From a virus (Duplodnaviria > Caudoviricetes), in IMG/VR virus record IMGVR_UViG_3300014204_000127, positions 49,898 to 113,897 of that record: a stretch of 64,000 nucleotides of DNA; one strand, written 5' to 3'. This document shows, in pieces, positions 2,465 through 58,857 of the stretch (its first letter is position 1; every line of letters starts with the position of its first letter). Both the position numbers and the translations under genes were made by a program. The notes beneath the pieces are model-generated. The model was not told the DNA's origin. It ran no database searches and saw only the letters and a list, made by a program, of their open reading frames with translations.

Positions 2465-3895
2465 TTAGAAAGTCAAGTATTTTTCAGCATATCTTTTATC
2501 ATGTTTTTCTATTTCCCTTATGCCTGATGATGATATATGTTCATATTCTGGCTTTGAAAAATAATAGGCAAATTTGATATTTGGAAGGATATCTTTGCAA
2601 TACTTGGCAAAATCCTTTTCATATTCATAATCTTTAACATTTCTTATGCCTCGTATAATAGTAACATCATAGGGCAAAGTAGCAAGATAATCAACCAACA
2701 TACCACTATATGTTGTATACTCATAACTATTTATAACAATATCTGGTATAGGATATGATGGTGTTTGTTTTGCATCATTACACCCCCTGCTTACTATTAC
2801 TTTATCAAAATCCTGCTCTGCCTGTGTCAAAATATCATAATGCCCTATATGAAATGGATTAAAACTTCCTACAAACATACCAATTTTGTATCGTCTGTTG
2901 TTAATATAAGCAACCAACTTTTGCACATTTTCACAAATAATTGGCCTATTTTCAGCAGCCTTCAAAACCGATTCTAAAAATTTAATTCTTTCTTTTTTAT
3001 AAACATCCAAATGACATTTGGAAAATTCTGTAAATATGTTTCTCTCATATTTATACAGTTGTTCATCATTTTCCTCAAGAAACACATGCCAGTCAAGTGC
3101 CTGAATTTGGTTCATATTATTAAAATCAGGGATTCCCTTAGTGGACATAATTAAATTAACCATATCATCTACTTCTGGACACCCACCATACTTTGATTTA
3201 ACAACATTTGTCGCATAATCTTCATGGGAAGCCCCATACACTCGTTTGGCATAGCATATATCATGATAAATAATGGCATGTACCAATGCTATGTCCAATG
3301 ATGACATTTTTGACAACATTTTCATAGGGTGTATTATGTTGTGATAAGCATTATCAACCAGTGCTTTGTTTCTGGTATATTCTGCAAATAACAAGGGAAA
3401 TGTGGCAAATGCCGTTTTGGTAGTCACCTGATTATAAACAGGGAAATCCTTCTGAAGTTCCAACATATTGGCTACAAAATTGTCAGAATGCTTGTAAGGT
3501 TTCTGTATCTCGCCAACTATCGTAAAAATATCAGTACAAAGATTTTGTAATCTGATATCCTGATGAATATTGGCACATTCTATTAGAATATAGTTGCGCT
3601 TGGTTTCGGTTACTAGAGTAAATATCTCGGAAAACATGGAGGTCTTTATTTTGCTAAGTACTTTATTAATAAGTTCTTGTGTTTCTATTGCAAGAGTTTC
3701 TTTAAATATATTAGGATATCTTTGCAGATACCCCTTTATTTCCCCAACTTCATGCATATCTTTTGTATACTTCTTGGCAATACTATCACAATCTATGTGC
3801 AGTACAGAGTCAAATGCAGACAGTTTTTTGCACAAAGTGCTCTTTCCACTGCCCATTTTACCATTAATTCCAATAATTATTTTATCTTTAATCAT
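2465..3895 (-). CDS. Fusion: dephospho-CoA kinase (CoaE)-like + HD-like domain + phosphopantetheine adenylyltransferase (CoaD)
   Basis: N-term IGINGKMGSGKST...IDCDSIAK; middle YHNIIH...IIYHD; C-term GSFNPFHIGH, IIRGIRNVKDYEYE, HISSSGIRE. Confidence 0.85.
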   Translation of the reverse strand: MIKDKIIIGINGKMGSGKSTLCKKLSAFDSVLHIDCDSIAKKYTKDMHEVGEIKGYLQRYPNIFKETLAIETQELINKVLSKIKTSMFSEIFTLVTETKRNYILIECANIHQDIRLQNLCTDIFTIVGEIQKPYKHSDNFVANMLELQKDFPVYNQVTTKTAFATFPLLFAEYTRNKALVDNAYHNIIHPMKMLSKMSSLDIALVHAIIYHDICYAKRVYGASHEDYATNVVKSKYGGCPEVDDMVNLIMSTKGIPDFNNMNQIQALDWHVFLEENDEQLYKYERNIFTEFSKCHLDVYKKERIKFLESVLKAAENRPIICENVQKLVAYINNRRYKIGMFVGSFNPFHIGHYDILTQAEQDFDKVIVSRGCNDAKQTPSYPIPDIVINSYEYTTYSGMLVDYLATLPYDVTIIRGIRNVKDYEYEKDFAKYCKDILPNIKFAYYFSKPEYEHISSSGIREIEKHDKRYAEKYLTF

Positions 3896-13463: not shown

Positions 13464-13724
13464 TTATTTATTTGTATCGTTTCTATCATTTGCGTTAAAC
13501 TCTATAATCTTTATTCCATGTTGTTCAATCTTTTCTCTTATCTCATCAAACTTTGTGTTCTTGCCCCATATTTCAACAACATCACTGGCAAGAACTTTGA
13601 TTCTTATTCTATTTTTATTTATTATACATGGTTCATTATCAATGTCAACCCTATTTCTAACAAAAATAGAAATATTTTTAGAATCATATTCAAAAACACA
13701 ATATTTATTGATAAGTTTAAGCAT
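13464..13724 (-). CDS. hypothetical protein
   Basis: Co-oriented packed ORF. Confidence 0.6.
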   Translation of the reverse strand: MLKLINKYCVFEYDSKNISIFVRNRVDIDNEPCIINKNRIRIKVLASDVVEIWGKNTKFDEIREKIEQHGIKIIEFNANDRNDTNK

Positions 13725-13725
13725 T

Positions 13726-13935
13726 TTACTTTCTTGTATTCCAATACTTTACAGCATTTTCAATGGTCTGTTCATCAGCATCACCAGGGTCGTCCATAAA
13801 AAGGAAGTGTGCTGGACAATCTTGATTAGAACACCCTAGATCAAAATACTCCCCATAATGGTCGCTCTCTATCTTAATATATCCATCTGAACCACAGAAA
13901 GGACATGATTTTAGTTTATAATTTTTAGTATTCAT
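13726..13935 (-). CDS. Lar-family (restriction alleviation) Zn-finger protein
   Basis: LKSCPFCG...C....C...A...WNTR. Confidence 0.8.
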   Translation of the reverse strand: MNTKNYKLKSCPFCGSDGYIKIESDHYGEYFDLGCSNQDCPAHFLFMDDPGDADEQTIENAVKYWNTRK

Positions 13936-13946
13936 TCATACTTCCT

Positions 13947-14420
13947 TTATGTCCAAAGATAACTTCTTATTTTAACAAGCCTTATCAACATATATGTGTC
14001 GGTCTGCATCCTACACCTCTCATCGGAAAAATCAACATCATCTGAAAACCACTCTTTTTCTCTCTTTTTCCACCAATCATACAGAAATCTGATTTCTTTG
14101 GCAACCTTTCTCCTCTTTCTGTAGTACGCCCTTTGGTCTTTCAACGCATCTGCAAGTTGAGACTTGTCCGATATTTCCCTTCTCAATCTTGCATATTCTT
14201 CTTTAGATTCTTGCCCCCAATCCGTTACCTCAAGTATTTGTTCCTTTTCTACAACATTACAAAGTTCCTGAAAACATGTAAAAAGAATCTTGGTATCAAA
14301 ATCCATCCAACACCCTCTAAACTGTTTAAGTTCAATAACATGATATTTGTTAAAAAATCGGTTTATAATATACCTAAGTATACCAATTTGGTTATGAATC
14401 TCAAATAATTCTTTAAACAT
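13947..14420 (-). CDS. conserved hypothetical phage protein
   Basis: LYDWWK...MLIRLVKIRSYLWT. Confidence 0.7.
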   Translation of the reverse strand: MFKELFEIHNQIGILRYIINRFFNKYHVIELKQFRGCWMDFDTKILFTCFQELCNVVEKEQILEVTDWGQESKEEYARLRREISDKSQLADALKDQRAYYRKRRKVAKEIRFLYDWWKKREKEWFSDDVDFSDERCRMQTDTYMLIRLVKIRSYLWT

Positions 14421-14422
14421 CT

Positions 14423-14827
14423 TTATTTACCCCTTCCCTTACAAAACCCACAAACACCATTTGAATTAAGTTTACTACGGGGTACAAGAATATACTCATT
14501 TTTTCCACAAATTCTACATTTTCTTGTGGGAAATCCTTTTTCATCTATCTCATCCCACATCAGATTTCTATATATATTTGCAATATAAGGGGTTAGATTA
14601 TATTTAAGAATCCCTGCTCCAAATAATTTAGCATGTAGGTCGATACTTTTACATCTTTGTACCAATAATCCACTATATGTAGCATATCCCACATCCTCTG
14701 TTTTTTCACAATATGCTTTGGCCTTATTGCGATTTGATGCAAGGACTAGTGTCCCGTATTCACCATCTTTTGTACAAACTGTAAAACCTTTTAAATATTG
14801 TTCAGTTTTCATAAAACACTTCTCCAT
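14423..14827 (-). CDS. hypothetical protein with C-terminal CxxC pairs
   Basis: CRICG...CGFC. Confidence 0.65.
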   Translation of the reverse strand: MEKCFMKTEQYLKGFTVCTKDGEYGTLVLASNRNKAKAYCEKTEDVGYATYSGLLVQRCKSIDLHAKLFGAGILKYNLTPYIANIYRNLMWDEIDEKGFPTRKCRICGKNEYILVPRSKLNSNGVCGFCKGRGK

Positions 14828-14839
14828 TTCTACTATTTG

Positions 14840-14867
14840 AGTATAACACCTTTTTCTAAAAAATCAA
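14840..14867 (-). promoter_or_regulatory. promoter TTGATT-N16-TATACT (extended -10)
   Basis: Intergenic consensus match. Confidence 0.6.
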
Positions 14868-14876
14868 GCATAAAAT

Positions 14877-14909
14877 AAAAAATTCCTCAATTTTGTATAA
14901 GGAATTTTT
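14877..14909 (-). terminator. hairpin, probable terminator
   Basis: aaaaattcct...aggaattttt inverted repeat downstream of the phosphoesterase gene. Confidence 0.45.
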
Positions 14910-47185: not shown

Positions 47186-48676
47186 TTATTTTTTATAATT
47201 TTTAATATATTCTAAAATAGTATTTCTAAGGTCTTCCTTATGTTCAAGTACACCCATTTTCTTTTCTTCAATGGTGTCTTTTACTACAAGATCAACAATC
47301 AGAACTCGGTTCTTTTGTCCCTGTCTACTTATTCTACCTATACACTGTTCTCTGGCAACAGATGACCACCCATTTGTGAAAAATACCATTACGTCACAAA
47401 CGTCCTGTAAACCGTCAAGTCCTGTTCCTGCCGTCTTGGGGTGGGCTATAAGTACCTTATATTCGTCATTCTTAATAAACAACTCTATATTGTGCTTCTT
47501 CTGCTTGTCGTTCACCCTCCCTGACATTTCAACACACTTTATTTTAAGTTTCTTGCAAAGGGCGTTTATCATGTCAGCTTCCTCATTAAACTCATGCCAT
47601 ATAATGACTTTTCGTTCTATCTGAAGAAGAAGTTCTTCAAGTTCATTCAGCTTATTAGACTTTATTTTGACAACTTCACCATTCTTATCATAACAAAATC
47701 CAGAAGGAATTTGAACCAACTTGCTTGTTTTAGTAAGCATGGTTACAGTACTTTCCTCACTACTTCCTTTTATAGATGTTTTAAATATATCAGATTGTAT
47801 TTCAGTTTTAAGTTCTGAAAGAACATCTGATAGAAATCTGGTCTGCTCTGGAGTAATATCAACATTTATAAGCTGATATACTATTTCTGGCAAATCAAGG
47901 CATTCCTCACGGCTGAATCGTATTGTCACATCCTTAATTTTTTCAAGTATTTTCCTCTGGGAAGATGGTTTTATATACCAATTAAACTTATCCCAGGGTT
48001 TCTTATAAAAATAGTTATTAAGAAAATACCAATAATTGTCTCCAAGTGTTGCTCCATTGTCTAAAACATAGTATTGTGACCACAAGTCCATTTCGTTATT
48101 ACAAACGGGAGTTCCGGTCATAATAATAACTTTTTGACAAAATCCTGATACAGCGGCACATAGTTGTGATTGAATTGCTGCTTTATTCTTGCAATTATGC
48201 GATTCATCTATAATAAGCCCATCAAAATTAGCTTGTTTTATAGATTCAGTATCAATAACTGTCTTTACCTTCCCATTTCTGTCCTCAAATTTTTCCATAA
48301 AAAGGGGTTTAAGTCCCTCATAATTAATAATATAAAAACCTTCTTCGCCTGTTTCAAGAATTTTCTTTCTTTGAATTGCCGTGCCTTTAAGGACATATAA
48401 TGGTGATTTGGTATGCAGTGTTATTTGTTTTACCCATGAATTCACCACACCGTTAGGGCAGACAACAAGAACTTTCTTTGTCTTCCATAACTGGTGCATA
48501 TAAAGGGAATTAAGTGTTTTTCCAGTGCCTATGCCATGATTTATGGCAATTCTATTTTTTTCAAGTCCCCAAAGTAATGTAATATACTGGTGGCGATTAG
48601 GTTTTGTTCTAAATCTGATATCCTTAAATATTATTTCAAGGTCTTCTTTTGATAAATCCAAGTAGTTGATGCTCAT
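47186..48676 (-). CDS. SNF2-type SF2 helicase
   Basis: GTGKT, IIDESH, MTGTP, Q..GRI.RQGQ. Confidence 0.9.
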   Translation of the reverse strand: MSINYLDLSKEDLEIIFKDIRFRTKPNRHQYITLLWGLEKNRIAINHGIGTGKTLNSLYMHQLWKTKKVLVVCPNGVVNSWVKQITLHTKSPLYVLKGTAIQRKKILETGEEGFYIINYEGLKPLFMEKFEDRNGKVKTVIDTESIKQANFDGLIIDESHNCKNKAAIQSQLCAAVSGFCQKVIIMTGTPVCNNEMDLWSQYYVLDNGATLGDNYWYFLNNYFYKKPWDKFNWYIKPSSQRKILEKIKDVTIRFSREECLDLPEIVYQLINVDITPEQTRFLSDVLSELKTEIQSDIFKTSIKGSSEESTVTMLTKTSKLVQIPSGFCYDKNGEVVKIKSNKLNELEELLLQIERKVIIWHEFNEEADMINALCKKLKIKCVEMSGRVNDKQKKHNIELFIKNDEYKVLIAHPKTAGTGLDGLQDVCDVMVFFTNGWSSVAREQCIGRISRQGQKNRVLIVDLVVKDTIEEKKMGVLEHKEDLRNTILEYIKNYKK

Positions 48677-49806
48677 GGCAAGATCTCCGATGATTTCAGT
48701 TGAACAGCCTTTTCTGCACCCTGATTTAGCGGAACACCAATATGCCGCACGGTTGAAGCACTATGTTCAGCCGCTTGTCCATAGATAAGTTTACCCCTGG
48801 CAGATATATTAAAGGCTGCATTAGAGTCTCTATGGTCAAAGTGAGTACACAAACATTTATATGTCTTTCCATTTGGTTTGTTGATTCTACCACATCTTGA
48901 ACAAATCTGGCTTGTATAAGCTGGATTTATAAAATAGAGGGGAACACCAAGCAAAGTTGCTTTATACTCTATGAAGGTTTCTAATTGATAAAAAGACCAT
49001 TGAGATTTTTGAACATATCTCTTGGCTTTACCTTTTTTTGAAATTTTTCCTAAATCCTCTAGTACAATAGCAAGACAATGTAATTTGGCATGGTCAACGA
49101 TAGAACGACTCACTCTATGATTTATATATTTAATCCTATTTGACTGTTTTCTTCTTATCTTCTTTAAAGCATTTTTTGCCCCTTTCTTTTGTAAATTCTT
49201 TCTTCTATTACGAAAATTTTTAGAAATCCCTGATGTGTCTGGTCCAAACTTTCTAACTTTACCAGACATGGGATTAGCACAAACAGCCACATTGCCCACA
49301 CTATTCCTACCAACACCAAGAAATCCTCTGACTTCTTGTTTTTGTAAAACTGGTGTATTGTAAGAACATGACATAAACCATTTTCTATCCCTCTTAAAAA
49401 ACTCTACGTGTCTAATAAACCCAGAAATGGGCTTAGGAAATGTGGCATGGATCAATACTTTTTTAAAAATTGATGGTATTTTAATACCCCCGTCTACAAT
49501 CTTCACTTGTTTTCCTTTGTCCCCACAAATAGGTAGAACTAGGTTTTTAATCTTTTTAAGTTTAATATTTTTCTGATACTTTGAAATAAGACTCTTGGCA
49601 AGAACACATGGAACTTCTTTATAATATTTAGAAGAGGATTTAGTTTTATCTTCTAGCATTCTAGTAACACAAACAGAGGACTTTTGATATAAATCATCTA
49701 AAATAGGAAACAAAGTGTGGGGGATGACTATCTTAAAGGGAAGACACATAGTATGTCCACTCCCCTTTATTACATCATTTTCATTTATTTGTTTAATTAT
49801 GTTCAT
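48673..49806 (-). CDS. tnpB: TnpB/Cas12f-like RNA-guided nuclease homolog with RuvC-I Asp apparently replaced by Gly
   Basis: FLGVGRN (expected GVDRN), IVLEDL, WSFYQL..FIEYKA, PAYTSQICSRCG, HRDSNAAFNI. Confidence 0.88.
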   Translation of the reverse strand: MNIIKQINENDVIKGSGHTMCLPFKIVIPHTLFPILDDLYQKSSVCVTRMLEDKTKSSSKYYKEVPCVLAKSLISKYQKNIKLKKIKNLVLPICGDKGKQVKIVDGGIKIPSIFKKVLIHATFPKPISGFIRHVEFFKRDRKWFMSCSYNTPVLQKQEVRGFLGVGRNSVGNVAVCANPMSGKVRKFGPDTSGISKNFRNRRKNLQKKGAKNALKKIRRKQSNRIKYINHRVSRSIVDHAKLHCLAIVLEDLGKISKKGKAKRYVQKSQWSFYQLETFIEYKATLLGVPLYFINPAYTSQICSRCGRINKPNGKTYKCLCTHFDHRDSNAAFNISARGKLIYGQAAEHSASTVRHIGVPLNQGAEKAVQLKSSEILP

Positions 49807-49807
49807 T

Positions 49808-51220
49808 TTAGTCTAAATCCTGCCCAAATACACTAAATGCCTGTTCATCTTTTTCCTTGCCCAACCATGAACTACAACCTGTTTTACCTATTGTAAGGCA
49901 ATGGCTAAAGCTACATGACACGTTTTGTATACCATTTCTATTAGCAAGAACCTGTATCTTACCTATGTTTAGTTTCTGTTTATTGTTACACCCTATAACA
50001 GCAAGTGCTAAATCTACGTTGCCTATTTTACGCTTATCCTCAGAAATATCCTTCATATTTATTTCATTGGCATCAAGTGCATCCGCTGTAACCTGTGATG
50101 CTGTGGCAACTAGACAGTTCCGTTCTACTGCCATTTTTCTTAACTTCAGATAAAGATTATTAAGCTGGTCTCTGGTTTCTTTGCCATACTTGGATTTATC
50201 CATAATATCTGCATAATCGGTTATAATAACATCAGCAGTAATCCCCTTTTTAATCTCAAGTTGATTAAGACACCTTTCCATCTCTGCCACAGTACAGGTG
50301 TCAGGAGGATATTCCATTAGTTCAAGATGCCCTTTATATGCCTCTCTATATTTGGTTCTAATGTTTTTTACCTTTTCATTATTGCCATAAAGAGATTCTA
50401 CCTTGGCATAACCTGGTTCAAAGGACTCGGTATTGGGATTATAAGTAACATATGTAACAGGTTCCCCGACACGCTCTGTACCAAGTCCTGTCAACATCAT
50501 ATCAAAACGTTGGCATAAAACCTCTTGGGACACTTCGTGTGAAAAATAAACAACATTTAATCCATGTTCTATTGCAGTTTTGGCAAGGTGCATGAGTGAC
50601 CAGGTTTTCATGCCCTTGTATCCTGCCAAAAACACAATTAAGTTCTTTCGCCTATATCCCCCAATTAAAGTATCTAGTGCGTCATATCCCGTGTGCATAA
50701 GATATTCTATTTTCTGTCCACGAATGTCTATATCTGAGAAATCATTAAAATAATCATAACCCGCCGTCGTTTTTTGAATACCACAGGAATTAACCTTGTT
50801 AATTATTTCCTTAGCTTCGTCGTAGTTCTTGTCCACAATTGCCTTTGTAAACAATAAGGCTGCTTCCTCATATGCCCTTTGTTGTATAAATCCATCAAGT
50901 TTATATAACACATATTCTTTTGTGGCCTGTGTGTTTATAATCTTTTCAAGTAGTTTAATATATAAATTTCTATCATCTACCGAAAGATTGTTTGTCTCAA
51001 AATAAGATATTATTTCATCCTGAAAATGGTCTTCGGCAGCCTGACTGAAGTTATTAAAATAATTCAGAGCTATTTTTGATAGAGTTCTTGAATAGCTTGA
51101 ATTAAAATGCTTTGGTTCTATTTGCCCTACCACAAGTCTGCAAAACTCCGTATCCGAAAATAATAGCTTTAGAATACTGTTTTCCAGATGTGGATTAAGT
51201 TCTTTACTGTTTTCTTCCAT
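49808..51220 (-). CDS. DnaB-like replicative helicase
   Basis: TGYDALD.LIGG, AGYKGMKT, FSHE, TDYAD, ASQ, ANRNG. Confidence 0.88.
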   Translation of the reverse strand: MEENSKELNPHLENSILKLLFSDTEFCRLVVGQIEPKHFNSSYSRTLSKIALNYFNNFSQAAEDHFQDEIISYFETNNLSVDDRNLYIKLLEKIINTQATKEYVLYKLDGFIQQRAYEEAALLFTKAIVDKNYDEAKEIINKVNSCGIQKTTAGYDYFNDFSDIDIRGQKIEYLMHTGYDALDTLIGGYRRKNLIVFLAGYKGMKTWSLMHLAKTAIEHGLNVVYFSHEVSQEVLCQRFDMMLTGLGTERVGEPVTYVTYNPNTESFEPGYAKVESLYGNNEKVKNIRTKYREAYKGHLELMEYPPDTCTVAEMERCLNQLEIKKGITADVIITDYADIMDKSKYGKETRDQLNNLYLKLRKMAVERNCLVATASQVTADALDANEINMKDISEDKRKIGNVDLALAVIGCNNKQKLNIGKIQVLANRNGIQNVSCSFSHCLTIGKTGCSSWLGKEKDEQAFSVFGQDLD

Positions 51221-53815: not shown

Positions 53816-56456
53816 AAGTCCAAATCATTTCTTTTGTTTCTTTATTCTTTGTCTGTCTACAATAATCTGTTTTTCCACACGTATCACAAACGTGCATACC
53901 ATAATCAAGTATTTCTGACAGTTCCCCCATATTCTTGCCAATACTGAACTCTACATCCAAAGGAACTTTTTTCATAAAATCCCATCTTACCTTGCACATG
54001 TGTTTTTTAACAATCTTTAAAACATTATTTAACTCTTCTTTAACAAAATCAATAAGGATACTATCATGAATCTGCCCCACAATTATGGATTTAAGTCCCA
54101 GTTCTTTCAATTCAGCATTGATATCATGGAAACTTGCCATAAGACACTGAAATGATATTCCCTGTATATTGCCATTGAATATCTTATTTCGTGTCATAGG
54201 GGCATACATGCGATATCCTATTGCATTGGTAATATAACCATTTTCTTGATATAAGTCAAGTAAATTATTTTGCCATTCACGAATTTCAAAATGCTTTGTC
54301 CAGAACTCATCTTCAACTTTCTTTATCCACTCCTCAGATAGTTTTAGAGCATTCGCTATTGGTTTATAGAATGAACCATAAACTAATGGGAATACCATCA
54401 TGTTTTTAGCATTTTGGCGTTCTGTCTTGGATATGTCACCACCATCTTTGGCGTAGATATTGGCAGCCCAATACCTGTGAACGTCGCCATCCGATAGAAT
54501 AAATTGCTGTAACTCATTATCATCACTACACATAGCAATAAAACGCATTTCAGCACTAGCATAGTCAACTTCAAGCAGCCCATCATTCCGTGCAATAAGT
54601 GCTTTTCGTAATTGCTTCAGATAATCGTCATGCTTAGGAACCTGTTGAATATTTGGGTCAACACAACTACTTCTGCCTGTTACAGTCGTATGTATAAGGA
54701 ACGAGGGGTGAAGATATCCATTCACATTCAATTTCTTCCAGTTCTGTATAAAACCGTTAAGTTTTATGGCCTTTGCCTTTGATTTGCAATTATTAAGAAA
54801 ATCCACAACTTCCTTGTTATCCTTGGCCTGTTCAAGAACATGGTCAATAGCATCATCATCTGAAGCAAAATACTGAAAATTATCCCTGTTGCTAAGGGAT
54901 ACATTGTCTTCTTCACCACTCGTTGTTCTCTTTAGAGGCTTATAGCCTAGCATCTTATAAAGCAGCTTCTTTAGTTTCTTTTCTGAACCAGAATCAAGTT
55001 CCTCACCATATTTAAATCTATATTGCTTATAAAGATTGCAACTTCTCTCTATTTCCAGACAGCTTTCAGTATCATCATTGCACATCTTTTCAAGTTTTGC
55101 CATATAATCCAAATCAAGACGAATGCCTCTGTATTTAGCATCAGTCATGTCTTTTATACATTGCGTGTACAATGTTGCCACATAAGCCGATTCTTGTGGG
55201 ATTTGTTGTACAAGGTCATTAACCCATTTCATTAAATATCTGGTATCAAGAGAGTTATATTTACATACCTTTTCTAAAGGGGCGGCAATCAAATTAGACT
55301 GGTCAATATTTTCATCATAATTTGTGCCATATCGCACATAACATTGAAATTTCTGACCACAAATACCTCCAGCACGATTATCAACAATGTGTTGTATTGT
55401 CATAGGGTCAAATATGACATTATTAATCTCTGTGTTCAGTTTACATCTGCTAGCCATGTCCTCATAGGCGGAGTTTTGTATAATCTTTGGCCTGTCAGAT
55501 TTTAGCCAAATAGATAACAATATATCTATTTCTTTAAGTTCCTTTTCCTTAAACGGTGTTTGAGGATGATAAAGTGGTATAACCCACCCCTCTGTTTCAT
55601 CAAAAGAAAAGGATGCTGTTAGTAGTTTATAAGATTCTGAAAAGTAATCAAGACCAGTAGCTTCATAGTCAAAGCCAACAGGGGCTTCATTCTGCATAAG
55701 GACATCAAAGAAATTTCTTACATGTTCTATATTGGAAATAATATAGTTGCCATTGTTTTCGTCAATTCTACGGTCTTTGAATATATATTGAAGTCTGTCC
55801 AGACCTTTTTCTATTGCATTATCTAATACAAAAAAGTCCATGACTTTCTTTTTACGTCCATCAGGATATGTACCCTCTATAAATAAATAGGGTTCTTTTA
55901 CACAAACAACAGGACATCCCCATGTGTAACTTGGTACAATGTATCCATGACTATTAAAAGAATTGACACTAACTGGAGCATCATATAGAACTGATTGAAT
56001 AGGTAGATTGCCAAAGGCAAATATTAAATCAGGATTAAATTCTTTTAAATCTTGTATAAACAAAGGCTTACAACATTCCATCTGTTTTTTGGTATATTTT
56101 TGATTGGCAGCAAAGAAGCTATTATGCTTCTTGTTGTGTGATGGGCATCGCATCACTGTAAACTTTTTACAATCTCGTTCAATATCTATATGATATTTGG
56201 CAAAAACCTTCTTTAAAAATCTAGTTTGTCCCCCACACATAATATCATTAAGAGCATCTTCAGTTTTACCCACGTGGTCAAGAACTAGGGCAATTTTCCT
56301 TAATCCCCTGCCAGATGGTTTCATATTAGGGTTGTGTGCAAAACCCGACAAACCACAGGTTCCACAATCAAGGTTCTTTTTGTTAATGAACATGTCATTA
56401 TCCACAGAAAACAACATGCCATTATGCGTATTAATATTTAAGTCGCTTAAATCCAT
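53793..56456 (-). CDS. Family A DNA polymerase with N-terminal uracil-DNA glycosylase-like domain and 3'-5' exonuclease
   Basis: CGTCGL...RCP...CC UDG-like; FDYEATG exo; TGRSSC.DPNIQQVP, DYASAEMR, R..AK...F..VYG, QIHDS. Confidence 0.92.
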   Translation of the reverse strand: MDLSDLNINTHNGMLFSVDNDMFINKKNLDCGTCGLSGFAHNPNMKPSGRGLRKIALVLDHVGKTEDALNDIMCGGQTRFLKKVFAKYHIDIERDCKKFTVMRCPSHNKKHNSFFAANQKYTKKQMECCKPLFIQDLKEFNPDLIFAFGNLPIQSVLYDAPVSVNSFNSHGYIVPSYTWGCPVVCVKEPYLFIEGTYPDGRKKKVMDFFVLDNAIEKGLDRLQYIFKDRRIDENNGNYIISNIEHVRNFFDVLMQNEAPVGFDYEATGLDYFSESYKLLTASFSFDETEGWVIPLYHPQTPFKEKELKEIDILLSIWLKSDRPKIIQNSAYEDMASRCKLNTEINNVIFDPMTIQHIVDNRAGGICGQKFQCYVRYGTNYDENIDQSNLIAAPLEKVCKYNSLDTRYLMKWVNDLVQQIPQESAYVATLYTQCIKDMTDAKYRGIRLDLDYMAKLEKMCNDDTESCLEIERSCNLYKQYRFKYGEELDSGSEKKLKKLLYKMLGYKPLKRTTSGEEDNVSLSNRDNFQYFASDDDAIDHVLEQAKDNKEVVDFLNNCKSKAKAIKLNGFIQNWKKLNVNGYLHPSFLIHTTVTGRSSCVDPNIQQVPKHDDYLKQLRKALIARNDGLLEVDYASAEMRFIAMCSDDNELQQFILSDGDVHRYWAANIYAKDGGDISKTERQNAKNMMVFPLVYGSFYKPIANALKLSEEWIKKVEDEFWTKHFEIREWQNNLLDLYQENGYITNAIGYRMYAPMTRNKIFNGNIQGISFQCLMASFHDINAELKELGLKSIIVGQIHDSILIDFVKEELNNVLKIVKKHMCKVRWDFMKKVPLDVEFSIGKNMGELSEILDYGMHVCDTCGKTDYCRQTKNKETKEMIWTCDGCFEK

Positions 56457-56471
56457 GTTTATTATACTCTT

Positions 56472-56717
56472 TTAGTTATTAAGTAGATGTGTGTCTTCTA
56501 ATTCATCATTTATATCCCTTGTATCCTTCTTTGTATAGGATACATCGGTGTAAAACCTCAAAACAGCTTCACAATTGGGACACTCTATGACTTGATTTTT
56601 CCAGCCACTGTCATATGTTTCCCACCCATTTTGTACTTTATCACAGACAGGACATTTAAACCATGCAATGTAAGTCGTCTTCTTTTCTTCAATATAGTCA
56701 ATATTGTGTTCAGTCAT
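56472..56717 (-). CDS. Zn-ribbon protein
   Basis: CPVC...CPNC. Confidence 0.65.
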   Translation of the reverse strand: MTEHNIDYIEEKKTTYIAWFKCPVCDKVQNGWETYDSGWKNQVIECPNCEAVLRFYTDVSYTKKDTRDINDELEDTHLLNN

Positions 56718-56910
56718 TATTCATTTCCTTTATTTTTTCAGTATATGACACAACCGTCTTACCATCTGGTGCAACTGATACACCCTGAATACATTTTCCA
56801 CGTAATTCCAGCAAATCTACTGATATTTCTTCATAATCATGTATTCTACGGTCTACAAAAAATGTTATCTTTTTTACACGTTTTGAACGCTTTACACGTT
56901 GTTTTTCCAT
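56710..56910 (-). CDS. hypothetical protein
   Basis: Overlapping packed ORF. Confidence 0.55.
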   Translation of the reverse strand: MEKQRVKRSKRVKKITFFVDRRIHDYEEISVDLLELRGKCIQGVSVAPDGKTVVSYTEKIKEMNND

Positions 56911-56933
56911 GCAACACGCTAACTTTCTTTATT

Positions 56934-57063
56934 TTAAGCAACATCTACGTCTTCATCAAAATACTCGTTATCATCATAAGATTCATCGCCCAATTCAAAT
57001 TCTTTACCACATTTAGGACAGGCAATAATGTCACCCTCCTCAAAAGAATCATTTATTTTTTCT
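56934..57063 (-). pseudogene. Detached C-terminal tail of the upstream methyltransferase ORF
   Basis: EKINDSFEEGDIIACPKCGKEFELGDESYDDNEYFDEDVDVA*; in frame with 57293-58108 once 57064-57317 is removed. Confidence 0.7.
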
Positions 57064-57175
57064 ATGAACTACTCGCCAGCAAGCTGGCTGAGTTTCTTCC
57101 TTCGTAGAATTTTCTTGTTATTACTAACAGTGGATTTTTCTCCAGAAGCGTTTATTCCCGTAGTTCCTACGGTAT
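57045..57175 (-). ncRNA. putative TnpB omegaRNA (reRNA) scaffold plus flank-derived guide
   Basis: ACCGTAGGAACTACGGGAATAAACGCTTCTGGAGA (typical tnpB 3'-end sequence) through the RE hairpin; guide AGAAAAAATAAATGATTC. Confidence 0.6.
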
Positions 57176-57317
57176 TTTCGGTATTTTGAGTTTTGTTTTT
57201 GTAAAAAACAAAACTCTAATTATATGTATAATAACTATTTCTTAGTATTTTGTCAATGTAATACTAAGACAGCAATTCATCCCCGTAGCTAGCTACTGGG
57301 GATTTCTTGCTGAAGAG
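57064..57317 (-). mobile_element. Non-autonomous 254-bp IS200/IS605-family mini-element (LE hairpin, promoter, omegaRNA-like segment, RE; no tnpA/tnpB)
   Basis: Follows TTAAT; LE CAGCAAGAAATCCCCAGTAGCTAGCTACGGGGATGAATTGCTG; RE GAAACTCAGCCAGCTTGCTGGCGAGTAGTTCAT. Confidence 0.82.
57228..57256 (-). promoter_or_regulatory. promoter TTGACA-N17-TATTAT in the mini-element; -35 bracketed by a 9-bp inverted repeat
   Basis: cttagtatt...aatactaag at 57241-57268. Confidence 0.6.
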
Positions 57318-58108
57318 ATTAAAACACTATTTAGTCTATCTTCAGTTATCTTTAAATACGATTCATTTATTTCAACACCTATAAAATTGCGATTGTTTAA
57401 TAATGCCATTTTTCCTGTTGTACCCGAACCCATGAAAGGGTCGAAGATGGTATCATTTTCATTTGACCATGATAAAATATGGTCTTCAACAAGTTTTTCT
57501 GGAAACACCGCAGGATGCCCATTCTTAACCTGCCCTACTGAATATTCCCAAATATTTGGAAGAATCTTTTCTTGTCCAGTTTCCCTGTAATATGTCCTGT
57601 CCTCAACTCTCATAGACTGGGACATATCAAGAAGTTTTCGTCGTTCTTTGCCATATTTTTCCATTTTTCCGGCATATTTACATGGCATTTTTAAGGGATT
57701 AAATGTCTTGGGTTTGCCTTTTGACCACACAAACATATACTCAAAACACTGTTCATATCTATTGTGTGTCAGAGGGACATAGTTAATTTTTCTATATATC
57801 ATTGTGTCATGCAGATTCCATCCAACTTCTTTTGCATAAAGGGCTTGCATAAAACTTGTACCACTTTCACAACCATTTTTTGTAGAGTCCCCTACAACCC
57901 AAACCACAGTTCCCCCTGTTTTGGTTATTCTATAAATTTGTTCAATGCAAGGCTTCCAAATAAGTTCACCCCACGTTTTATCTATGTCTTTTGCATAGGA
58001 TCTCAATTGGTCATAAGGGGGTGACGTAATAGTTAGGTCAATACTACTAGCATCCATTTCTTTCATTTTGCTAACACAATCACCCAATATTAACCTATAA
58101 TCACACAT
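57293..58108 (-). CDS. DNA methyltransferase (N4-C/N6-A, beta class); C-terminus altered by the mini-IS
   Basis: TSPPY, HPAVFPE, DPFMGSGTT. Confidence 0.92.
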   Translation of the reverse strand: MCDYRLILGDCVSKMKEMDASSIDLTITSPPYDQLRSYAKDIDKTWGELIWKPCIEQIYRITKTGGTVVWVVGDSTKNGCESGTSFMQALYAKEVGWNLHDTMIYRKINYVPLTHNRYEQCFEYMFVWSKGKPKTFNPLKMPCKYAGKMEKYGKERRKLLDMSQSMRVEDRTYYRETGQEKILPNIWEYSVGQVKNGHPAVFPEKLVEDHILSWSNENDTIFDPFMGSGTTGKMALLNNRNFIGVEINESYLKITEDRLNSVLISSARNPQ

Positions 58109-58110
58109 AT

Positions 58111-58857
58111 TTAATCTACCCTCTCTATTCTTTCTTTAGCATCATTATAGTATTTTTCACACAATTCCACACCTATAAAACCTCTATTTAATTTCTTACA
58201 AACAACTCCAGTAGTTTCACTTCCCATGAAGGGGTCAAGAACTGTATCATTTTCTTTTGAAAAATTAAGTATAATAGATTCTACTAACTTTTCTGGAAAC
58301 ACTGCGGCATGTCCTTTTATCTTGGAAGTACCTCTGTTTATTCTTAAAATATTCTGCATTGTGCCCCTATCAAAAATAGCATTTTGTATAACTCTTCCGG
58401 CTTTTTTATCATTTTCTAAAATAAGTATAAGTTCATAAGCACTATTCAACACCTTTTCGTGCATAGCAGGTTGTCCAAAGCCCTTGTCCCAAACTATAAT
58501 ATCTTTGATGTCCTTATTAAAATCACCAATTAGTTTAAAAAATGCTTCTTTACTGCCTGTAACTATCTGAAAATTATAGGCAACTACTTTAGATATTCTA
58601 AGCATTTCCAAAAGACATGCCTTATGAAATTCATAAAATTTATCTATTGGCAGGGCATCGTGAAATTCACTGTATTTCTTACTAAAATGTTCAGATTTTT
58701 CTCTAGTAGTATACTTACCATTGCATATTCGTGTACGCATATTGTATGGTGGGGATGTAAGAACCAAATCAACTTGTTTATCTGGGATAGTTTTCATCAC
58801 ATCAAGACAATTTCCACATATCAACTTATATTTTTCAGTATTTATAATATTTTCCAT
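58111..58857 (-). CDS. DNA methyltransferase (N4-C/N6-A, beta class)
   Basis: TSPPYN, HAAVFPE, DPFMGSETT (FxGxG third Gly replaced by Glu). Confidence 0.88.
   Translation of the reverse strand: MENIINTEKYKLICGNCLDVMKTIPDKQVDLVLTSPPYNMRTRICNGKYTTREKSEHFSKKYSEFHDALPIDKFYEFHKACLLEMLRISKVVAYNFQIVTGSKEAFFKLIGDFNKDIKDIIVWDKGFGQPAMHEKVLNSAYELILILENDKKAGRVIQNAIFDRGTMQNILRINRGTSKIKGHAAVFPEKLVESIILNFSKENDTVLDPFMGSETTGVVCKKLNRGFIGVELCEKYYNDAKERIERVD

Follow-up and report, generated by a model that had tools for sequence, protein, structure and literature searches.

A protein-less IS200/IS605 derivative with a predicted omegaRNA scaffold at a phage methyltransferase locus

A 254-nt block in the genome of a Caudoviricetes virus is very probably a non-autonomous PATE (palindrome-associated transposable element) that carries an omegaRNA scaffold behind its left-end promoter, and this is the best overall explanation of what is found at the locus. 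The block lies at positions 57064-57317, on the minus strand, of the 64,000-nt stretch of DNA analysed here (referred to as the window), which corresponds to positions 49,898 to 113,897 of the IMG/VR virus contig IMGVR_UViG_3300014204_000127 (113,897 bp). As judged by sequence comparison, the block is an element of the type present in another IMG/VR contig (IMGVR_UViG_3300014204_000827, abbreviated as L009), minus about 1.26 kb from the middle. Comparison with related sequences also shows that the phage methyltransferase (MTase) gene is essentially complete and now ends inside the left end of the element, and that the adjacent zinc-ribbon gene has been beheaded.

PATE-like elements have been described in Geobacillus, and PATEs often encode omegaRNAs that need TnpB in trans (Meers 2023, PMC10055086); a PATE derived from CdiIStron has also been shown (10.1101/2023.11.20.567912). 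In TnpB systems, the omegaRNA scaffold consists of the tnpB 3' end and the right end, with the guide supplied by the sequence that flanks the right end (PMC10055086). The RNA part of the present block has this composition, namely the 3' end of a tnpB gene and a right end, with the flank in the guide position.

Place, boundaries and parts of the element

The genes around the insertion are all on the minus strand, and the MTase reading frame (58108 to 57293) runs into the block (57317 to 57064), which directly follows TTAAT and has its terminus, GTAGTTCAT, at 57064. The features of the locus are listed below in window positions.

57293..58108, minus: N6/N4 DNA methyltransferase (PF01555), the last 8 codons and stop of which come from the element left end
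57318..57322, minus: TTAAT, the transposon-adjacent motif (TAM) in the left-end flank; TTTAAT at the L009 left end, and TTAAC-type at most recognisable left ends of the family
57064..57317, minus: 254-nt protein-less IS200/IS605 derivative (probable PATE), with stops in all three forward frames and a longest open stretch of 48 codons
57281..57301, minus: left-end subterminal hairpin of 21 nt, 16 nt from the boundary, presumed TnpA binding site
57240..57269, minus: perfect 10-bp inverted repeat enclosing the -35 box, also present in L009
57228..57256, minus: predicted left-end promoter TTGACA-N17-TATTAT, with an 11/12 consensus match
57219..57223, minus: internal deletion joint between the part homologous to the left end and the part homologous to the tnpB 3' end, about 7 nt past the -10 box
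57188..57216, minus: predicted omegaRNA stem 1, a 13-bp AT-rich hairpin that lies inside the tnpB 3' coding end in full-length copies
57170..57187, minus: 9 nt repeated in tandem within the linker that joins stem 1 to stem 2; a single copy in L009
57158..57172, minus: predicted omegaRNA stem 2, 6 bp with a GAA loop, followed by a conserved linker; two compensatory C-G to G-C changes in L042
57072..57092, minus: right-end bulged hairpin at 8 nt from the boundary, a position at which every family copy has a hairpin of variable sequence
57064..57068, minus: TTCAT, right-end terminal cleavage motif; in related phages, whose zinc-ribbon gene is intact, the flank follows the same 5 nt
57044..57063, minus: predicted omegaRNA guide, the flank right after the right end, placed by analogy with TnpB systems (PMC10055086)
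56934..57063, minus: truncated zinc-ribbon gene, C-terminal 42 codons and stop, with 84-88% identity to residues 28-61 of protein P0241

An earlier note on this DNA, made from the letters alone, had described a 254-bp insertion after TTAAT with hairpins, a promoter, a motif of tnpB 3' ends and a right-end terminus, and every one of these features was found where it had been placed. The tnpB motif (57173-57148, minus) sits at the tnpB stop or in the tnpB 3' coding end in three relatives of the element (L009, L034 and L042). As in PATEs and MITEs, imperfect subterminal hairpins are present at both ends with no terminal inverted repeats, the insertion is 3' of a short conserved motif with no target-site duplication, and no protein gene lies inside the 254 nt. 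The hexamer AAGAAA precedes both the left-end hairpin and the right-end bulged hairpin.

The ends were located by comparison with other copies of the family. GTAGTTCA(C/T/A) is the terminus of the mini-element and of 21 further copies, of which 16 are in cyanobacterial genomes or MAGs, two in L034 and one each in the viral sequence L033, in L009 and in L042; the flanks beyond it are unrelated. The recognisable left ends all follow a motif of the TTAAC/TTAAT type (TTTAAAC in L033). One close family, represented by L034 and L042, occupies two different insertion sites. Downstream of the right end there is an A-rich 10-mer, which may be a target preference of the family. Because of these comparisons of copy ends, both boundaries of the 254-nt block are fixed with no reading-frame argument.

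The 254-nt form itself is known from a single copy in the 113,897-bp contig. A second contig with the block and the MTase gene (L005) is 100% identical to the window over 12.7 kb, and so it adds no independent evidence for the element. The sign of mobility expected of a PATE or MITE, several copies or filled and empty sites, was not found for this form, and several insertion sites are seen only among the full-length relatives. The earlier note had proposed a search with the element ends, which did yield a full-length relative with tnpB and gave no sibling of the 254-nt form in IMG/VR with either exact or gapped end patterns. Exact end motifs of 20-25 nt matched only the L009 contig in IMG/VR and nothing in 185,579 species genomes, and a gapped left-end/right-end pattern for sibling PATEs gave five chance matches in IMG/VR, all without hairpins. 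No match to the element was obtained in the phage GenBank collection, where the 2.5-kb neighbourhood matched only distant MTases, and a search through the DNA polymerase gave no close relatives of the phage in IMG/VR. With a single known copy of this form, the loss of the interior could have taken place at the present site.

Full-length relative and predicted omegaRNA

The tnpB-bearing element of L009 was found by a search seeded with the peptide of the 48-codon open stretch, and it is also present on an 82.6-kb ENA contig (L038; ERZ27247350 k141_1838205). Its parts are, in order, TTTAAT, the left end, a relic of a Y1 transposase gene with 55 codons, a tnpB gene for 373 aa and the right end. 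The relic between the left end and tnpB matches PF01797 with an E-value of 8.6e-10 and 39 bits (cut-off, 23). All three Pfam domains are found in the TnpB protein, and its closest solved relative is the TnpB of ISDra2, with an E-value of 2.5e-73.

Two parts of the mini-element correspond to this relative. The left end with the promoter has about 96% identity to L009 over 103 nt, reaching just past the -10 box, and the last 150 nt or so, which comprise the tnpB 3' end and the right end, have about 95% identity, with the 9-nt duplication and a few substitutions as differences. In the left-end hairpin only one base differs from L009, and this base is in the loop; the right end of L009 has the same terminal GTAGTTCAT. 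Between the points that are joined in the mini-element, L009 has about 1.26 kb, consisting of the tnpA relic and nearly all of tnpB. The ends of the 254-nt block are thus homologous to those of an element with tnpB and a tnpA relic, as is characteristic of PATEs and MITEs. Since the left 98 nt or so and the right 150 nt or so are about 95% identical to the ends of a full-length tnpB element, the element features listed above are, by this sequence comparison, not due to chance, and the earlier designation of the block as a tnpB-less IS200/IS605 mini-element agrees with it. The same note's view that the left end, the internal promoter and an omegaRNA/right-end module have been kept is borne out by their match to L009. 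Four parts have been retained in all: the right-end terminus, the left end including its TnpA hairpin, the promoter of the left end and, directly behind this promoter, the parent's final 155 nt or so as a putative omegaRNA scaffold. The 48-codon open frame was also considered as a relic of the TnpB C-terminus and was rejected: tnpB of L009 stops earlier and is in another frame, and only the 409-aa relatives P0122 and P0123 read through this region.

Outside the element, the L009 phage and the window phage are unrelated at the DNA level, apart from a weak MTase match. The element of L009/L038 lies directly after a stop codon in this otherwise unrelated phage; its TAM (TTTAAT) and terminus are the same as those of the mini-element, and it is longer by about 1.26 kb. 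The left junction of the 254-nt block has the TAM seen in L009 and the look of a true TnpA insertion junction.

The position of the promoter is kept in the relatives, with TTGATA-N17-TATTAT in L009 and TTGACA-N17-TATAAT in L034 and L042; at the position of the 10-bp inverted repeat, L034 and L042 have a different palindrome of 7 bp. Judging from its same place in L009, L034 and L042, the left-end promoter is an ancestral feature of the mobile element. The internal joint follows the -10 box by about 7 nt, and the predicted transcript would therefore start almost exactly at the scaffold. From this promoter, an RNA of about 160 nt plus the guide would be produced.

For the omegaRNA segment, a check by RNA analysis had been suggested in the earlier note; the folding z-score against shuffles is -5.3, and a scan of 56000-58500 against Rfam with E-values up to 10 gave nothing relevant and no intron family. 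Stem 1 differs from that of L009 by paired changes only, and it is kept with different sequences in L009, L034, L042 and L033. Comparison of the mini-element with L033 and with tnpB1 of the same contig shows covariation in the long-range closing stem. With few sequences compared, this covariation is no more than suggestive of a conserved omegaRNA structure. The MAFFT/RNAalifold analysis of cyanobacterial and phage copies gave a poor alignment and was kept out of the claims on structure. The 9-nt duplication lies in the linker of the predicted omegaRNA and could impair its function.

The methyltransferase and the truncated zinc-ribbon gene

Deletion of 57064-57317 joins the MTase frame to an open frame of 42 codons ending at 56934. 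This in-frame fusion had been pointed out in the earlier note, and we confirm it, with 42 codons added to the MTase; its observation that the TAM plus the right-end flank equals the excised junction also holds, by construction. The block had been interpreted as a guide-RNA-only parasite that homes into empty alleles of co-infecting phages, and the excision of which restores the true MTase reading frame and switches the enzyme between a form with a CxxC/acidic tail and one lacking it. The two correspondences just mentioned speak for this interpretation, and the ends and scaffold look intact as it requires.

The homologues of the MTase and of the tail point in another direction. Lengths of 250-289 aa are found among the 120 closest homologues of the MTase, and the 17 that were aligned stop 0-15 residues from the insertion point, with the CxxC/acidic tail in none of them. 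When the 42-residue tail was compared by phmmer with 1.84 billion proteins, one strong match was obtained (E-value, 7.7e-11), to P0241, a 77-aa protein with two CxxC motifs. The gene for this protein is intact, with its own start and a length of 77-80 aa, in two short ENA contigs (L040 and L041) that are syntenic with the window. Their gene order is an upstream gene ending in RLNNVLK*, the zinc-ribbon gene, a gene for 63 aa and the start of the DNA polymerase gene; in the window, RLNSVLI is the counterpart of RLNNVLK*, and a 66-aa ORF matches the 63-aa gene. The zinc-ribbon gene of the window lacks the start codon and the first CxxC. The tail is the C-terminal half of a separate gene, so excision would make a chimera and would not restore a gene. 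The idea of a switch between two MTase forms fails on the same evidence, together with the loss of about 110 nt described below. The search for an empty site, which had been proposed as a check, gave no TTAAT|flank junction in JGI metagenomes with a degenerate pattern (two chance matches in eukaryote-like DNA), and the contig contains neither TnpA nor a cognate TnpB. The restored-ORF part of this interpretation is largely refuted, and as a whole we regard the interpretation as improbable. As a caution for similar cases, an in-frame "repair" upon deleting an insertion does not prove an ancestral gene.

The homology between L040/L041 and the window begins at 57068, with the TTCAT that is common to the element terminus and the zinc-ribbon gene. 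On the MTase side, 20 of 23 nt match L041, up to GTTTTAA. Between these two flanks, L041 has 113 nt that are missing from the window. With this segment of about 110 nt, the window lacks the stop codon of the MTase gene, the spacer and the first 28 zinc-ribbon codons, in which the first CxxC is encoded. Nowhere else in the contig was the N-terminal half of the zinc-ribbon gene found. Since L040 and L041 are only about 74% identical to the window, this ancestral arrangement is one inferred from relatives and not that of a direct ancestor. The flank at 57063-57037 (27 nt), which contains the 20-nt guide, is identical to the intact zinc-ribbon allele of L040/L041; there, the target matching the guide follows TTCAT and not TTAAT.

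This loss of neighbouring DNA exactly up to the right-end terminus is the one curiosity specific to this locus. In the simplest route, the element would have been inserted at TTAAT near the MTase stop, and a deletion between two TTCAT repeats would have followed, the second repeat being inside the zinc-ribbon gene about 110 nt downstream of the TTCAT at the right end. Alternatively, two copies could have been inserted at a distance of about 110 nt and have recombined to the same product. Insertion at TTCAT with a deletion on the left side might also be considered, and this would require that the canonical TAM was recreated by chance. Either the 5-nt direct repeat TTCAT or a recombination event between copies would suffice to explain the loss. 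Deletion of adjacent DNA is a general property of insertion sequences, and the present case is alike in that one endpoint of the lost flank is exactly at the element terminus. To our knowledge, no adjacent-deletion mechanism has been described for the "peel and paste" elements of IS200/IS605.

Trans partners, alternative explanations and known systems

No Y1 TnpA is found in the 113.9-kb contig, and the collections searched yielded no full-length cognate one. Nor was a TnpB cognate to the mini-element found in the contig, in which two of the three tnpB-like genes were compared with the parent. The closer of these two, tnpB1 (G000 13720-14886, outside the window), encodes a protein with 44% identity to the parent TnpB. 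Its omegaRNA architecture is the same, its right end has the terminus ACATCAA, unlike the mini-element, and its left end and TAM are not definable. The tnpB-like gene in the window (48673-49812) has 27% identity to the parent TnpB over 147 aa. With this low identity of the window gene, and with the 44% identity and different terminus of tnpB1, these two TnpBs of the contig were rejected as trans partners. The CheckV completeness of the contig is 57%, so the host, a co-infecting phage or the portion not covered by the contig could carry a cognate tnpB. A Y1 TnpA supplied in trans could excise the element and reinsert it after TTAAY, and a cognate TnpB from the host or a co-infecting phage, together with the element's RNA, could direct cleavage of the excision joint. 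Such use of the guide in trans is possible.

If the guide is used with a borrowed TnpB, elements of this kind would be low-cost selfish passengers, or would serve as weapons when phages compete, an idea that has already been proposed: a 2026 review puts forward that IS605 elements can home into co-infecting phages or plasmids (PMC13565253), and both omegaRNA-bearing, trans-dependent PATEs and phage homing are already published (PMC10055086; PMC13565253). A stronger form of it, in which the element is a borrowed-nuclease weapon or homing cassette between phages, with TnpB from the host or a co-infecting phage cutting competitors that lack the element, and in which the loss of about 110 nt is a by-product of TnpA/TnpB and not a random deletion, is in our judgement unlikely.

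The block may also be an inert relic, in which a full-length insertion lost tnpA and tnpB in place as well as the adjacent DNA and is now neither usefully transcribed nor mobile. This explanation is possible, if doubtful. It fits the occurrence as one copy only, the lack of siblings and of an empty site in the searches above, the 9-nt duplication in the scaffold, and the adjacent loss of 110 nt as an unselected rearrangement at the locus. It sits less well with the state of the element: the promoter, the TAM, the terminal motif and the two ends with their hairpins have all stayed intact, at about 95% identity to a copy that still bears tnpB, the internal deletion spares almost exactly the omegaRNA module, starting about 7 nt after the -10 box, and the changes in stem 1 relative to L009 are all paired. 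A promoter close to consensus that is aimed at the downstream genes, with no terminator after the element on the minus strand, could suggest instead that the block has been co-opted as an outward promoter, kept because it boosts transcription of the replication genes that follow (DNA polymerase and small ORFs). We consider this very unlikely, since the mobile element had this promoter in its left end ancestrally, L040 and L041 have the same gene order without it, and nothing shows selection for it. Fusions of IS605-family elements with group I introns exist in low-GC bacteria (10.1101/2023.11.20.567912), and an IStron-like element spliced from the mRNA was considered for this reason; with no Rfam intron match at E-values up to 10, no group I core, and a length of only 254 nt that is fully covered by homology to the left end, promoter and omegaRNA/right end, such an element is hardly credible here. 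The reading as a non-autonomous PATE with its scaffold behind the left-end promoter accounts for these observations best.

As such, the mini-element is a well-anchored phage example of guide-RNA-only IS200/IS605 derivatives, with an element of the parent type in an unrelated phage. It resembles the PATEs of Geobacillus stearothermophilus (PMC10055086) in having no protein gene, a hairpin at both ends and an omegaRNA (predicted here), and also in its dependence on TnpA and TnpB in trans, which is likewise predicted here. It differs from the Geobacillus PATEs in its location in a phage genome, in its single known copy, in that the cognate nuclease is not in the contig, and in the loss of about 110 nt of flank ending exactly at the right end. 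The parent TnpB can be aligned over its full length with that of the ISDra2 TnpB/omegaRNA complex (PDB 8bf8, 8exa and 8h1j), at the E-value given above. The TAM of the mini-element family, TTTAAY, differs from that of ISDra2 (TTGAT) and resembles the TTTAA reported for ISAam1 (PMC11224200), to which the family is likened by TAM alone.

Other tnpB-like genes of the phage

Three loci with tnpB-like genes are found in the parent phage contig in addition to the 254-nt, protein-less IS200/IS605 derivative (PATE) referred to here as the mini-element, one of them lying within the window:

Window 48673-49812, minus strand: tnpB-like ORF, open over 379 codons
G000:C1:8564-10400, parent contig outside the window: 349-codon tnpB-like gene and a preceding ORF on the same strand
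G000:C1:13720-15000, parent contig outside the window: third IS605-type unit of the same phage

The product of the ORF in the window has GVGRN at the RuvC-I position normally occupied by Asp, and compared with the parent TnpB of the mini-element it shows only 27% identity over 147 aa. By inspection of its translation, the ORF ahead of the 349-codon gene looks like an IS607-type serine recombinase. The tnpB of the third unit has 388 codons, its product is 44% identical to the TnpB of the full-length relative in L009, and it is followed 3' by an omegaRNA-like region and then by a right-end hairpin terminating in ACATCAA; in the sequence upstream of this tnpB, no hairpin could be clearly recognised as a left end.

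Nested insertion and promoter palindromes

In the phage-like JGI contig L034 (nested locus at 1240-2860), a full-length tnpB element, encoding a TnpB of 409 aa with 77% identity to that of L009, is inserted after TTTAAC, and the same arrangement is present in L035-L037. The insertion site lies in the interior of an older protein-less element. This older element is equipped with a left-end hairpin of its own and a promoter of consensus sequence, and its omegaRNA/right end terminates in GTAGTTCAC. The tnpB element is a nested insertion into the guide-RNA region of another PATE.

The left-end promoter of the mini-element has its -35 box within a perfect 10-bp inverted repeat (window 57240-57269), and a different 7-bp palindrome occupies the same position in the related elements of L034 and L042 (about 1440-1470 in L034). 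The symmetry is conserved while the sequence is not, and the palindrome enclosing the -35 box could act as an operator or as a hairpin specific to one strand.

Right-end flanks and contig ends

The 874-bp ENA contig L040, which contains the intact zinc-ribbon gene, has one 17-nt sequence at both ends, in opposite orientations (1-17 and 858-874); we take this to be a random-amplification primer, and the outermost ~25 nt at either end should be regarded as unreliable.

An A-rich 10-mer with a run of six A, then T and then three A is found 2-7 nt past the right end in 3 of the 22 family copies, about 0.015 such cases being expected from its genome-wide frequency, and a fourth copy is followed by the 10-mer with one mismatch.

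A-rich 10-mer after right ends of family copies
Window 57052-57061: after the mini-element
L034:2866-2875
L029:3739-3748
L009, about 3123-3132

The right-end flank in the window also shares an identical stretch of 15 nt with the sequence following a PATE-like, unrelated element of L034. These matches could be due to chance in A-rich leaders or to a target preference.
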